Shown: positions 28,593-33,024 of the stretch, one piece after another | How positions within the stretch are numbered: the first letter of the stretch is position 1 | Layout: every line of letters starts with the position of its first letter | NCBI GenBank assembly: GCA_965205015.1 | Contig: OZ242029.1 | Span: forward strand, 1,280,001 to 1,344,000 | Length of the DNA stretch: 64,000 nucleotides | Source: Candidatus Poribacteria bacterium | Lineage (GTDB): Bacteria; Poribacteria; WGA-4E; WGA-3G | Direction: 5' to 3' | Position numbers and translations under genes: made by a program | The notes under the pieces: generated by a model | What the model was told of the DNA's origin: nothing | Seen by the model: the letters and a program-made list of their open reading frames with translations, nothing else | Databases searched by the model: none

Positions 28593-31500
28593 CTAAACCT
28601 GTTCAACGCTTAAGGTTGCGGGTTCGCCGTTCAGTTTTTGGGCGAGGGTGAAAGCGTTTTCACCCGGCGTATCTACGACGGCTGTCGTAAGGGTCTCGCG
28701 GAGGATGTAGTCTCGATGTGCCTGAAACGCCTCATCCAGAAGTGGAGACGTATCACTGAGACTGAGTTTAATCCGATCGGAAACGTTAAAATCGGCATTC
28801 TTCCGCATATTCTGGATTTTATTGACGAACTCGCGCGCCAAGCCTTCCAGTGTCAACTCGTGCGTCAATTCCGTTGACAGTGCGACGAATTTCTTCGCGT
28901 CTACTTCTACGAAGAAACCCTCTCGATTCTGGGTCTGCACATCAACTTCAGATGGCTCCAGGGTGTATGCCTCTCCCGAGACCTCAACCTGTAAACTACC
29001 CGTAGCTTCCAATTCCGCCTTCAACGCGACTGCGTCTGCGGAGGCGAATGCTTTGGCGATGGCTTGCACGCCCTTGCCGTATTTGGGTCCCAATACCCTG
29101 AAGTTGGGTTTGAGTGTCACCTGTGCGAAAGCCTCCAAGCTCTCTGTGAAGCCGATCGCTTTGACATTGAGTTCATCGTGGATGAGGTCTGCCAAACGAT
29201 TCACAGCCGCTTTCTCAGTGTCGGAGAGTCCACCGAGGGTGATTTCTCCCAAGGGTTGGCGTGTTTTAATGCCGGAACGGTTGCGAGCGGCATGCCCCAT
29301 GCGAATCACTTCGCGTGTGAAATCCATATCTGCTTCTAACTGAGTGTCTTTGAAGGCGGCATCCGCAATCGGATATTTCGCAAGATGAACACTCAGAGGT
29401 GCCTCGTCATCCAATGAACACACCAAATTACGATAGAGTTCATCCGCCCAAAACGGAACGAAGGGGGCAGCGAGTTTCGCAACGCTTACGAGGACCTCAT
29501 AAAGCGTGGCGTAGGCGGCATGCTTGTCAGTTCCGGCTTCCGCGCCCCAGAAGCGGTCGCGGGAGCGGCGGACATACCAGTTGCTGAGGTCGTCCACAAA
29601 CGCCTCAATGGCGCGCGGAGCATTCGTGAGATGATAATTTTCCATCTCGGCGCGCACCTTGTCAATGAGGGTGTGGAGACGCGACAAGATCCACCTGTCT
29701 ATCGTGGCGCGTTCTGAAACAGGTGGCGCGTCTCGCAAGACATCGACCTGCTCAAGGTTGGCATACATGACGAAGAAACTATAGACGTTCTGGAGCGTTC
29801 CCATGAACCTCTTCAAGGCTTCATCAATGCCCTCTATTTTGAAAGCGCGGGGTGTCCAGGGTGTGGTTGCGGTGAACATATACCAGCGCATCGCGTCTGC
29901 GCCTTGTTCGTTCAGAATTGTCCACGGATCGATGGTGTTGCCTCGGCTCTTACTCATCTTCTGGCCGTCGGGTCCCATAATCAGTTCAAGACAGAGACAG
30001 TTTTTGTAAGCGGGCTTGTCATAGAGGAGTGTGCCAGTCGCTAAGAGACTATAGAACCACCCACGGGTCTGATCGATGGCTTCGGAGATGAAATCGGCGG
30101 GGTAGGCTTGCTCCAGCATTTCCTGATTCTCAAAGGGATAGTGCCACTGCGCCGTGTGCGCACAACCGGAGTCAAACCAGCAATCAATGACATCTTGCAC
30201 GCGATGCATCGTGCCACTGCATTTCTCACACGCAAGAACAACATCGTCTACATAAGGACGGTGGAGTTCAATATTATCCGGCACATCCGTCCCGAGTTCA
30301 TGCAATTCGGCGATACTGCCGACACAGTGTTGATGTCCGCAGTCGTCACACACCCAAACCGGCAAGGGGGTGCCCCAATAGCGTTCACGACTCAATCCCC
30401 AGTCGATATTGTTTTCCAACCAATTGCCGAAGCGTCCGTCTTTGATATGCTCGGGATACCAGTTGATCTGCTGGTTGTGCTGATGCATCTGATCTCGGAT
30501 AGCGGTCGTCTGGATAAACCACGATTCACGGGCATAGTAGAGCAAGGGGGTATCACACCGCCAACAGAACGGATATTGGTGGGTATACTCGGCAGCCTTG
30601 AATAACAGTCCACGCCCATCCAAGTTTTCGATGATCTTTGGATCGGCGTCTTTGACGTATTCACCCGCCCAGGTGTCTTTAACTTCTGGGACAAATCTAC
30701 CGTCGGGACCGACCAATTGTACGAGGGGCAAACCGTGTTTCTGTCCGATCTCGTAGTCGTCCTGTCCGAAAGCCGGAGCGATGTGAACCAAGCCACTCCC
30801 CTCCGTTGTCGTCACGAAATCGCCGGTGACGATGTAGTGTGATTTTTCCGGATGCTGTCCACCATCGAACAACGGTTCGTATTCCCAGTCTTGGAGGTCA
30901 CTGCCTTTATAGTTTTCGACGATTTGTGGGGGTTCATCTCCGAATAAACTGGGTATACATTCTTTTGCGAGAATGAGGTGCTTCCCATCGCTTTCTTCAA
31001 CGGAAACGTAATCGTAATCCTCACCGACAGCGACAGCGACGTTAGAGGGTAATGTCCACGGGGTCGTCGTCCAGACGAGGAGGTAGGTATTCTCTCTGTT
31101 TTTCAGCGGGAAGCGAACGAAGATAGATGGATCGGAGACTTCTTGGTAACCCTGCGCGACTTCGTGGCTCGCTAAGGTTGTGCCGCACCGATAGCAATAG
31201 GGTTGGACCTTATGCCCTTGATAGAGGAGTTCCTTGTCCCACGCTTGCCGGAGGACCCACCAAACGCTTTCAATGTAATCGTTCGACAAGGTGATATAAG
31301 CATCATCGAGATCAACCCAATATCCGATGCGTTCCGTCATCCGCCGCCACTCCTGCTCGTATTGGAAGACGTTCTCCTTACATTTTTCGATAAAGTTTTG
31401 AACGCCGTAAGCCTCGAGTTCGGCTTTGTTTTTAATATCGAGTTGCTTTTCGACCTGATATTCAACGGGCAGTCCGTGTGTGTCCCAACCTGCCTTACGA

Positions 31501-31739
31501 TGGACGTAATGTCCCGTCATCGTTTTGTAACGACAGACGGCATCTTTCATGATACGCGCGAGGACGTGATGCACACCCGGCGGGGCATTCGCAAACGGAG
31601 GTCCTTCGAGAAAAACAAAGGGCGGATCGCCTTTGTGGACATCCATACTCTTCTGAAAGATGTCGTTTTCACGCCAGAATTCTAAGATCTGTTTTTCCCT
31701 CTCAGCAAATGTGAATTGGGATGATACCTCTTCAAACAT
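28593..31739 (-). CDS. ileS: isoleucyl-tRNA synthetase, type 2 (long form)
   Basis: EGPP..N..PGVHH, GWDTHGLPVE, WTTTPWTLPSN, KMSKS, LKPNF..LGPKYG and EGLAREFVNKIQNMRK C-terminus. Confidence 0.96.
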   Translation of the reverse strand: MFEEVSSQFTFAEREKQILEFWRENDIFQKSMDVHKGDPPFVFLEGPPFANAPPGVHHVLARIMKDAVCRYKTMTGHYVHRKAGWDTHGLPVEYQVEKQLDIKNKAELEAYGVQNFIEKCKENVFQYEQEWRRMTERIGYWVDLDDAYITLSNDYIESVWWVLRQAWDKELLYQGHKVQPYCYRCGTTLASHEVAQGYQEVSDPSIFVRFPLKNRENTYLLVWTTTPWTLPSNVAVAVGEDYDYVSVEESDGKHLILAKECIPSLFGDEPPQIVENYKGSDLQDWEYEPLFDGGQHPEKSHYIVTGDFVTTTEGSGLVHIAPAFGQDDYEIGQKHGLPLVQLVGPDGRFVPEVKDTWAGEYVKDADPKIIENLDGRGLLFKAAEYTHQYPFCWRCDTPLLYYARESWFIQTTAIRDQMHQHNQQINWYPEHIKDGRFGNWLENNIDWGLSRERYWGTPLPVWVCDDCGHQHCVGSIAELHELGTDVPDNIELHRPYVDDVVLACEKCSGTMHRVQDVIDCWFDSGCAHTAQWHYPFENQEMLEQAYPADFISEAIDQTRGWFYSLLATGTLLYDKPAYKNCLCLELIMGPDGQKMSKSRGNTIDPWTILNEQGADAMRWYMFTATTPWTPRAFKIEGIDEALKRFMGTLQNVYSFFVMYANLEQVDVLRDAPPVSERATIDRWILSRLHTLIDKVRAEMENYHLTNAPRAIEAFVDDLSNWYVRRSRDRFWGAEAGTDKHAAYATLYEVLVSVAKLAAPFVPFWADELYRNLVCSLDDEAPLSVHLAKYPIADAAFKDTQLEADMDFTREVIRMGHAARNRSGIKTRQPLGEITLGGLSDTEKAAVNRLADLIHDELNVKAIGFTESLEAFAQVTLKPNFRVLGPKYGKGVQAIAKAFASADAVALKAELEATGSLQVEVSGEAYTLEPSEVDVQTQNREGFFVEVDAKKFVALSTELTHELTLEGLAREFVNKIQNMRKNADFNVSDRIKLSLSDTSPLLDEAFQAHRDYILRETLTTAVVDTPGENAFTLAQKLNGEPATLSVEQV

Positions 31740-31849
31740 TTTTTTAACTATTCGCCTCCTGGACCTGTTTCGTTAGAATGATTTAGAAGTCGGGAATCGG
31801 AGTTCCCTCCTACAGAAAAGCTAAAGGTTCTGAATCTGCTACCTACGTT

Positions 31850-31896
31850 AAAAAAAAACACCCTCACTGAAATCGTCTGCTTCAGTGATGGGCGTT
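31850..31896 (-). terminator. attenuator terminator upstream of ileS
   Basis: AACGCCC-A-TCACTGAA / TTCAGTGA-GGGTGTT stem ending in a 9-U tract on the minus strand. Confidence 0.85.
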
Positions 31897-31925
31897 GTTA
31901 TGGAGACTTTTTTCTCTGCTCGTGA

Positions 31926-32078
31926 TTAGCCCACCACAGCACGACGAATAGCAATAATAATAATAATGGATATGGCGCGCGAAGCCGAGACAGCCCGAAG
32001 GTTGCCTTGGTGTAGGGCGTTGTGGCGCACAAGCTCCTTATATTGCAATGTCGGTGTCGTAAGCATTTTCCTGTCCAT
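31926..32078 (-). CDS. putative ileS attenuation leader peptide (34-50 aa depending on start)
   Basis: MDRKMLTTPTLQYKELVRHNALHQGNLRAVSASRAISIIIIIAIRRAVVG*; ATA-TCC-(ATT)5-GCT-ATT; directly upstream of the terminator and ileS. Confidence 0.8.
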   Translation of the reverse strand: MDRKMLTTPTLQYKELVRHNALHQGNLRAVSASRAISIIIIIAIRRAVVG

Positions 32079-32160
32079 GTCTTACTTGAACAATGTATGG
32101 GGTCTTTGTGAATGCTGTCCGAGCCTTGTCAGACTCGGCGAAGACTTATCCCTATTAATT

Positions 32161-32190
32161 ATGATACCATATTCTATGAGGAGTTGTCAA
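32161..32190 (-). promoter_or_regulatory. promoter of the ileS leader
   Basis: TTGACA-18nt-TATCAT with TG extension. Confidence 0.6.
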
Positions 32191-32295
32191 ATCTTTTTTG
32201 TAACCATTCCAGTGTTGGCGATATCCATTGTCAGAATCAGGATTAAAGGATGGACAGGATTGTAAACTGTCGTGATTGAAAACTCTGGGAACGTT

Positions 32296-33024
32296 CTATT
32301 CGTTATTGTTGTCCTCATCTACGAGGTGAAATGGTGTTCCTTCCGCTCTCGCTTTTCGGTACTTCTCGATCCTCTGCAACTTCAAGGCCTCAGGCCACAG
32401 CACATATTTCGCTTCGAGAAAGGCGATGTATTCGTCTTCATCGCCGGGAAACCTAAAGCCTCCAAACCATAACTTTGTCTCTCCCTCAACAACAGTATCT
32501 ACCTCTGGGATATCGCCATGTTGTTTGATTAACTCTTCTCTGTAGATTTTAGCAAATAACTCTGGATCATCCGTCTCACGCCTCAATTTGGTCTTTAGCA
32601 ACTCTTCAAGGAAGTCCTGATTGGACTTGTTGGGCCAGAGGAGATGTTTCGCCTTGGCAAAGTTAATCATTTCCTCAGATGTATATGTAACGTAATCTCC
32701 CGATGCTTTTGCTTTCCTTCGTTCATGCGCTGCGACGATATGAACGGCTGGAATGTTCCCGAATTGTTGGAGGAGATGCGCATGGTAATATTTGGCGCGT
32801 AGTTCACGATCTTTCGTCTGATCCCAGTTTATGGGCACATCTAACGCCATGAGTTCCTGAACTTCTGCATCGCTAATGTCATAGGTAAGCCCGCTGGTAT
32901 CGTAAAATTCGCTTGGTATTACGATTGGATCCGTGTCTTCAGTTTCGCCACAGCCGACGAGAATAGATAGCCCTATGCACCAAGCGAAACCTAAAATTGC
33001 GCTAAGGATTTTGGTGTGTTTCAT
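32296..33024 (-). CDS. lipoprotein with two GDIPEV-type repeats, unknown function
   Basis: lipobox ILVGC; FGNIPAV...LLWP and HGDIPEV...VLWP. Confidence 0.75.
   Translation of the reverse strand: MKHTKILSAILGFAWCIGLSILVGCGETEDTDPIVIPSEFYDTSGLTYDISDAEVQELMALDVPINWDQTKDRELRAKYYHAHLLQQFGNIPAVHIVAAHERRKAKASGDYVTYTSEEMINFAKAKHLLWPNKSNQDFLEELLKTKLRRETDDPELFAKIYREELIKQHGDIPEVDTVVEGETKLWFGGFRFPGDEDEYIAFLEAKYVLWPEALKLQRIEKYRKARAEGTPFHLVDEDNNNE

Follow-up and report, generated by a model that had tools for sequence, protein, structure and literature searches.

The ileS gene of a Candidatus Poribacteria bacterium, which encodes isoleucyl-tRNA synthetase (IleRS), is preceded by a leader that, judging by comparison with its relatives, is most probably a classical ribosome-mediated (leader-peptide) transcription attenuator tying ileS to the supply of charged tRNA-Ile. 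The leader lies in a 64,000-nucleotide (nt) stretch of DNA, called the window here (64 kb; assembly GCA_965205015.1, contig OZ242029.1, forward-strand positions 1,280,001 to 1,344,000); coordinates below are positions in the window. All attenuator parts and ileS are on the minus strand, and the leader transcript is about 300 nt long. An earlier sequence-only reading of this DNA had proposed an Ile-codon attenuator with mutually exclusive antiterminator and terminator upstream of ileS, and a probably drug-resistant IleRS. The comparative evidence supports the attenuator and not the drug-resistance part; the coordinates given in that reading were all correct.

Anatomy, conservation, the open frame, isoleucine (Ile) enrichment and the competing helices were computed. 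The leader open reading frame (ORF; 32078..31926, minus strand) has 50 codons plus a stop, reads MDRKMLTTPTLQYKELVRHNALHQGNLRAVSASRAISIIIIIAIRRAVVG and ends in RAISIIIIIAIRRAVVG followed by the TAA stop codon at 31928-31926. Its regulatory codons, ATA-TCC-(ATT)x5-GCT-ATT (31947..31973, minus strand), include seven Ile codons in nine. Region 2, GUGGUGGGC (31937-31929, minus strand), makes up the last three sense codons and abuts the stop codon. Region 3, GCCCAUCAC (31893-31885, minus strand), is predicted to pair either with region 2, forming an antiterminator, or with region 4, forming the terminator. The intrinsic terminator (31894-31850, minus strand) is a G+C-rich hairpin made up of a 5' arm (31894-31881), a loop (31880-31872) and a 3' arm (31871-31859), with a run of nine T after it (31858-31850). 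The terminator placed at 31850-31896 by the sequence-only reading was borne out. The ileS gene itself (31739..28593, minus strand; 1048 amino acids) begins after a spacer of about 110 nt.

Transcription is predicted to begin at a strong sigma-70-type promoter (32190-32161, minus strand) with the -35 element TTGACA (32190-32185), an 18-nt spacer, and the -10 element TATCAT (32166-32161), which is TG-extended. The match covers 11 of 12 positions, in agreement with the promoter proposed earlier at 32161-32190. The motif TTGAC(A/T/G)-N16-19-TAnnnT was found upstream of 71 of 73 leaders.

A protein scan for IleRS in species-representative genomes yielded 80 loci: 76 from metagenome-assembled genomes titled Poribacteria and two titled 'uncultured bacterium' (both groups at 76-95% protein identity), and two from Anaerolineae (47-51%). 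An nhmmer search with the window leader covered the 77 Poribacteria-type loci that possess upstream DNA and placed the leader before ileS in 75 of them; in the two misses this DNA amounts to just 151 and 501 nt, and locus L035 has none. The same nhmmer search did not find the leader in either of the two Anaerolineae loci. By BLAST, the leader DNA (156 nt) matched 102 of 175 genomes of the phylum. The leader set used below comprises 73 sequences, namely the window and 72 loci. Dropped from it were L037, in which a contig end cuts the leader, and L048 and L056, which were missed by the end-motif pattern; the leader ORFs of the latter two are open, that of L048 lacking the usual stop and running two codons longer.

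Apart from the run in the leader, neither strand of the 64 kb holds any stretch of four or more Ile codons, and mononucleotide shuffles gave 0.025 runs of at least five Ile codons per window; the run therefore exceeds chance. Across the 73 leaders, the last 16 codons contained five Ile codons in 48 leaders, four in 11, six in nine, seven in one, three in two and two in two. The median of five in 16 codons compares with 6.2% Ile in the long ORFs of the window. The common C-terminal end is RAI-x-III(I)(I)-A-I-RRAVVG-stop, and the single Ile codons flanking the run are conserved as well. Conservation of the run and its frame upstream of ileS in relatives had been named beforehand as a check, and both were conserved.

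Leader Ile codons were ATT in 277 of 355 cases (78%) and ATC in 11 (3%), and in genes the corresponding shares were 38% and 46%. Most leaders use ATA for the opening Ile of the motif (R-A-I), and 67 ATA codons occur over the 73 leaders. The bias toward ATT and ATA may tune the sensitivity of the switch through wobble decoding and a minor tRNA-Ile.

Start, frame and stop of the leader ORF were followed in a frame alignment of 70 rows, L045, L047 and L053 being too divergent to align. The aligned start column was ATG in 67 of the 70 rows; the remaining three (ACG, ACG, ATA) carry an in-frame ATG four codons later. The distance from start column to stop took nine values between 108 and 150 nt and was in frame in 68 of 70 rows, so that the short ORF with a stop at 31926-31928, as first proposed, held across relatives. 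One exception, L050, is a real +1 shift, and the other, L046, is a misaligned row with its own 28-codon ORF. Three starts had been suggested (32078, 32066 and 32030). The ATG at 32078-32076 is the conserved one, the ATG at 32066-32064 serves as a back-up in relatives that lack the first, and the start at 32030 is unneeded. ORF length was mostly 28-50 codons, with three outliers of 55-57 codons and two of 72. In every aligned row, region 2 runs right up to the stop codon.

The peptide between these fixed points is free to vary. In the 48-codon class (n=32), codons 10-31 showed no codon periodicity (entropy 0.55, 0.45 and 0.51 at positions 1, 2 and 3), and the last 17 codons varied mainly at third positions (0.10, 0.18 and 0.28). 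Retention of the start, the frame, the stop and a few codons, together with a free peptide middle, is what marks out a regulatory leader peptide. The N-termini come in two alternative forms, MDKKSLTT and MFYQSLTT. Leaders of the MFYQ type have a short 5' untranslated region (UTR) and a GGA or GAGA 7 nt ahead of the ATG, and are the only type with a well-spaced Shine-Dalgarno sequence. Leaders of the MDKK type, including that of the window, have lost 6 nt, so that the purine block abuts the ATG, and their 5' UTR is longer and holds an additional hairpin.

Regions 2 and 3 can form nine pairs, GTGGTGGGC (31937-31929) with GCCCATCAC (31893-31885), one of them G-U. RNAalifold predicted the 2:3 helix unaided, both in a 71-row alignment that included the terminator and in a 70-row alignment ending before region 4. 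Pairing was possible in 638 of 639 alignment cells (99.8%), compared with 33-66% when the partner was slid by one to three columns. These results agree with the antiterminator put forward in the sequence-only reading, which was to have one G-U pair and to exclude the terminator. The terminator hairpin was predicted at -18.2 kcal/mol in the window and at a mean of -16.8 kcal/mol over the 73 leaders (range -23.2 to -12.8), and the 2:3 core formed in 71 of 73 isolated segments. As separate segments, 3:4 was predicted at -18.2, 2:3 at -16.0 and the local 1:2 helix at -10.5 kcal/mol, and these modelled energies resemble those of classical attenuators. An extended antiterminator in the fold of the window (UGCU:AGCA and UCGUC:GACGA) was rejected as part of the consensus and is clade-specific.

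The gap to region 2 is 15 nt from the end of the Ile run and 9 nt from the end of the last Ile codon. Because region 2 makes up the last three sense codons, a terminating ribosome would cover it; given those distances, a ribosome stalled on the Ile codons would leave region 2 at least largely free. We infer this blocking geometry, for the ribosome at the stop codon and at the Ile codons alike, from the usual ribosome footprint.

From this arrangement we infer stalling, coupling of ribosome and polymerase, a region 1 and the response itself, as follows. Transcription would start at the conserved promoter, with a ribosome translating the leader ORF as it follows the polymerase. Ample Ile-tRNA would let the ribosome reach the UAA and sit on GUGGUGGGC; with region 2 covered, the 3:4 terminator would form and the transcript would end at the T-tract, short of ileS. 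If Ile limitation or low IleRS activity makes Ile-tRNA scarce, the ribosome would stall 9-30 nt ahead of region 2, on the ATA/ATT cluster. This would leave region 2 free to pair with the emerging region 3, no terminator would form, and the polymerase would enter ileS. When there is no translation, region 2 would probably be held by GCUUACCAC (codons 5-8) or by the local stretch GCGCGCCAUA, leading to the terminator.

Two sequences are candidates for region 1. Candidate 1a, GCUUACGAC (32056..32064, minus strand; GCUUACCAC in most relatives), lies in codons 5-8 and is complementary to region 2. In minimum-free-energy folds of transcripts cut just past the stop codon, region 2 had GCUUACCAC as its partner in 59 of the 73 leaders. 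In 10 others it paired with a CCCAUCAC-like stretch immediately ahead of the Ile run, and in the remaining four with some other segment. GCUUACCAC is nucleotide-conserved, with 94.6% of cells pairable with region 2 and no covariation. The alternative, local region 1, GCGCGCCAUA (31971..31980, minus strand), lies just upstream of the Ile run and is complementary to UGUGGUGGGC; this combination was pairable in 83.9% of cells, again with no covariation, and RNAalifold on the stop-codon-cut transcripts took six GCGCGCCAUA:UGUGGUGGGC pairs in a weak consensus of -3.9 kcal/mol. A third candidate, CCCAUCAC itself, was set aside as confined to short-leader clades (77% of cells pairable, no covariation).

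Several observations weigh against the attenuator as described. The predicted identity of region 1 is ambiguous between candidate 1a and the local candidate, and in the clade of the window 1a carries a G-G mismatch. Thermodynamic folds of transcripts that end ahead of region 4 and carry no ribosome already contained 2:3 in 45 of 73 leaders, and masking a ribosome on the Ile run lifted this only to 54 of 73. A translation-free off state would therefore have to be kinetic, as in classical attenuators. The terminator showed one-sided changes only and no compensatory change. Covariation of 2:3 was thin because both strands are almost invariant: the changes were UA to UG, GU to AU, GC to GU and CG to UG, with CG to UA in three sequences as the one compensatory pair, probably a single event, and one cell was broken. 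The resulting covariation score was reached by eight of 500 shuffles. Judged by the alignment, 2:3 is a conserved pairing potential with one compensatory event rather than a case of strong covariation. The folding and covariation analysis suggested with the original proposal thus returned the alternative 2:3 and 3:4 helices, and on the covariation side only that single pair. Among individual leaders, L028 retains just two Ile codons and the leader of L050 is frameshifted. MDKK-type leaders have no properly spaced Shine-Dalgarno sequence, their GAGA or GGGA lying 1-2 nt from the ATG. To these is added a paralogous leader that keeps the switch without a run of any single amino acid.

Weaker second matches to the leader DNA occurred in some genomes, and two were inspected: L081 3830-3600 (minus strand), which equals G004:C1 about 3355100-3355330, and L082 780-1020 (plus strand). 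The start region of the paralog, GGATTATCGG-ATG-TTT-TAT...CTT-ACC-ACA, is as in the ileS leader. The paralog also shares the promoter, region 2 (GAGGTGGGC or GTGGTGGGC), region 3 and the terminator, and lacks the Ile run. Its ORF reads, for example, MFYLSSITLMHKNCLCTFIGLGVVLIGISMCRAVVGE before the stop, and ends in GSGGTILIHRAEVGL or GFGAVLIINSMYRAEVG followed by a stop. Among its last 20 residues Gly accounts for 18%, Val for 15%, and Leu and Ile for 11% each; in several copies the ORF finishes in a shifted frame. The gene 3' of the paralogous leader encodes a 716-amino-acid secreted protein with CBM9 and DUF5916 domains, and a motif search found the leader in 30 of 56 such loci (L083-L141).

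A covariance model of regions 2-4 recovered the ileS copy in five of five genomes and the paralog in three of five. No third copy of the scaffold was found at E<=0.01 with this model, 150 of about 2000 first-look candidates being scored per genome in the five genomes. As the paralog lacks it, the Ile run is a property of the ileS copy rather than of the shared scaffold, and this favors codon-specific sensing. It is conceivable, if rather doubtful, that the attenuator is a reusable cassette, with two copies of one scaffold (promoter, MFY..LTT start, regions 2 and 3, terminator) between which the sensor stretch has been swapped, with a pure Ile run before ileS and a hydrophobic stretch rich in Gly, Val, Leu and Ile before the secreted DUF5916/CBM9 protein. 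Were that so, it would be a natural example of attenuator specificity rewritten by edits to a few codons. The paralog, if functional, could serve a non-metabolic gene as a multivalent sensor of branched-chain amino acids, or its translation could report something else, for instance hydrophobic-peptide or secretion stress. With one copy of the scaffold carrying the Ile run and the other lacking it, the pair allows a built-in comparison of how sensor specificity evolves.

Since the switch persists before the DUF5916/CBM9 gene without a single-amino-acid run, the paralog also keeps alive a different explanation, in which the switch of regions 2-4 answers to another signal (a protein, a tRNA, a small ligand, or leader translation per se) and the Ile run is secondary. 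The nucleotide conservation of regions 2 and 3 beyond the need for pairing, and that of GCUUACCAC, point the same way. Such a signal would sit poorly with a start, frame and stop that are kept across in-frame indels, with a stop codon that always abuts region 2, and with an Ile run that occurs only in the ileS copy, where it matches the amino acid of the controlled enzyme. No T-box or riboswitch family match was obtained in the window or in 12 loci, and we regard this explanation as improbable.

Less probable still, and in our view very unlikely, is that the ORF encodes a small protein, or that the leader is a stable small RNA with its own terminator, with ileS transcribed from a separate promoter in the spacer and the juxtaposition of no regulatory meaning. 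The distance from leader stop to ileS start varies from 88 to about 460 nt across loci and could hide a promoter in some genomes, and leader RNAs released by attenuation in Sinorhizobium act in trans according to the abstract of PMC6614838. In 18 loci, however, at most 110 nt separate the leader stop from the ileS start, and only about 30 nt of these follow the T-tract; this is too short for a separate promoter, and ileS there must therefore be transcribed through the terminator. A small protein also fits poorly with the peptide middle, which lacks coding-type conservation, and a separate promoter would leave the antiterminator without purpose. RNA libraries bear weakly on the same point. Eight runs were found, each with only 4-10% of the sampled words, and four were examined; contigs joining leader to ileS were present in three runs from three studies, although these are contigs of relatives at about 90% identity that cannot show transcript ends or exclude DNA. 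Finally, it is scarcely credible that the likeness to an attenuator is a coincidence of an AT-rich simple repeat beside an ordinary terminator. ATTATTATTATTATT is indeed a simple trinucleotide repeat with a copy number of three to five, but the arrangement is kept in 75 loci with its start, frame and stop, the window holds no second such run in 64 kb, and the flanking single Ile codons are conserved.

The IleRS of the window scored 961 bits against TIGR00392 (cut-off 621). The best PDB chains were 1032-amino-acid IleRS entries and 1ile, at 933-1041 bits, and IleRS chains of 917-921 amino acids (8c9f, 8c9e, 1ffy) scored 355-365 bits. We take the 1032-amino-acid chains and 1ile to be type-2 and the 917-921-amino-acid chains to be type-1; by these scores the window IleRS belongs to the type-2 (eukaryote-like) clade. 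Scores of 964 bits for MupB and 948 bits for MupA lie far below the cut-off of 1900 of the NCBIfam exception models. In five of five complete Poribacteria genomes this IleRS was the sole match above the ileS cut-off, and sub-cut-off matches in those genomes are probably the other class I synthetase genes valS, leuS and metG. As the only ileS in all five complete relatives, the gene encodes the housekeeping enzyme, and the switch would therefore be ordinary homeostatic feedback and not induction of a resistance gene. The earlier suggestion of a probably drug-resistant IleRS is not supported, and the leader gives no pointer to a resistance mechanism. In one complete relative, at G004:C1:4137750-4140262, the ileS model matched in two adjacent frames (774 and 336 amino acids), which suggests a frameshift or an assembly error in the record.

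The element lies outside all Rfam leader families. No T-box match was obtained at E<=10 in window positions 31000-33000, and no Rfam family reached its gathering score in the 12 loci. The only weak Rfam match was to Thr_leader, at 18.3 bits (E = 2.4) where the gathering score is 55.

Control of synthetase genes by attenuation is established for the Escherichia coli pheST operon with its leader peptide pheM. The ileS leader resembles it in having a leader rich in cognate codons before the matching synthetase gene, alternative antiterminator and terminator structures, and predicted feedback from tRNA charging. It differs from pheST in the amino acid (Ile instead of Phe), in its unrelated sequence, in its phylum, in its longer leader (28-50 codons or more), in a stop codon that directly abuts region 2, and in a region 1 that is possibly long-range, near the 5' end of the ORF. 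The enterobacterial ilvGMEDA (ilvL), ilvBN and thr leaders likewise have Ile codons sensed by a stalled ribosome, the 1:2, 2:3 and 3:4 logic, and an intrinsic terminator, but these are multivalent and precede biosynthetic operons, whereas here one amino acid and a synthetase gene are concerned. A 2010 comparative-genomics paper by Lopatovskaya, Seliverstov and Lyubetsky on attenuation of aminoacyl-tRNA synthetase operons may list further ileS cases.

Passages of PMC1262725 cite pheST as a gamma-proteobacterial example, treat attenuation of trpS and leuS as a prediction in Streptomyces, whose ileS has translational T-boxes, and describe T-boxes upstream of ileS as transcriptional in Firmicutes and translational in Actinobacteria. 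The Poribacteria leader shares with T-boxes the target gene and the signal, uncharged tRNA-Ile, and with those of Firmicutes also the competition between terminator and antiterminator. Unlike a T-box, it has no Stem I, specifier loop or T-box sequence, and it would sense by having an ORF translated rather than by binding tRNA directly.

In ribosome profiling of Caulobacter crescentus, an 'ileS leader CDS' (CCNA_03934) appears as a control in a figure legend, and a small coding sequence before trpS is also shown (PMC4117421). The likeness is that of a short translated ORF directly upstream of ileS in a bacterium without a T-box; the legend gives no sequence, codon content, structure or mechanism (PMC4117421). 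Homology with the Caulobacter leader is unlikely given the distance between the phyla.

No paper was found on an ileS attenuator in Poribacteria, the search leaving aside supplementary tables (PMC2965389, PMC4117421) that could hold related cases. Among papers with both 'Poribacteria' and 'leader peptide', those listed dealt, by their titles and the opening of their abstracts, with natural products. The sequence-only reading knew of no description in this lineage; as a kind, however, the switch is not novel, since leader-peptide control of synthetase genes is known and the quoted legend prints an ileS leader in Caulobacter (PMC4117421). What is new is the lineage and the sequence family only; the kind of switch is conventional.

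If the attenuator operates as proposed, it brings attenuation of the trp-operon style to ileS and to a candidate phylum of uncultivated sponge symbionts, in contrast to the T-boxes that control ileS in well-studied Gram-positive lineages. It would also imply that transcription and translation are coupled in Poribacteria. For annotators, it adds a conserved cis-regulatory element, absent from Rfam, in about 100 species-level genomes.

Other features of the region stand apart from the switch. A hairpin in the 5' UTR, CCGAGUCU-GACA-AGGCUCGG (32119..32138, minus strand), appeared in the minimum-free-energy fold and in the alignment; it is restricted to the window's clade and is absent in short-UTR relatives. 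A 99-amino-acid ORF on the plus strand (31966-32265) was rejected as unconserved, the median longest antisense ATG-initiated ORF being about 27 amino acids in 76 leaders. Between the terminator and ileS lies a short spacer element, CTGTAGGAGGGAACTCCGATTCCCGACTTC (31786..31815, minus strand), that is not part of the switch. In RNA-library contigs its depth reached about 2300, where the surrounding sequence has 5-40, and loose ends occur on either side. The element is single-copy in the window at up to three mismatches, similar pieces occur in the spacers of some relatives, and it has the look of an interspersed repeat present in many copies in sponge-symbiont genomes.

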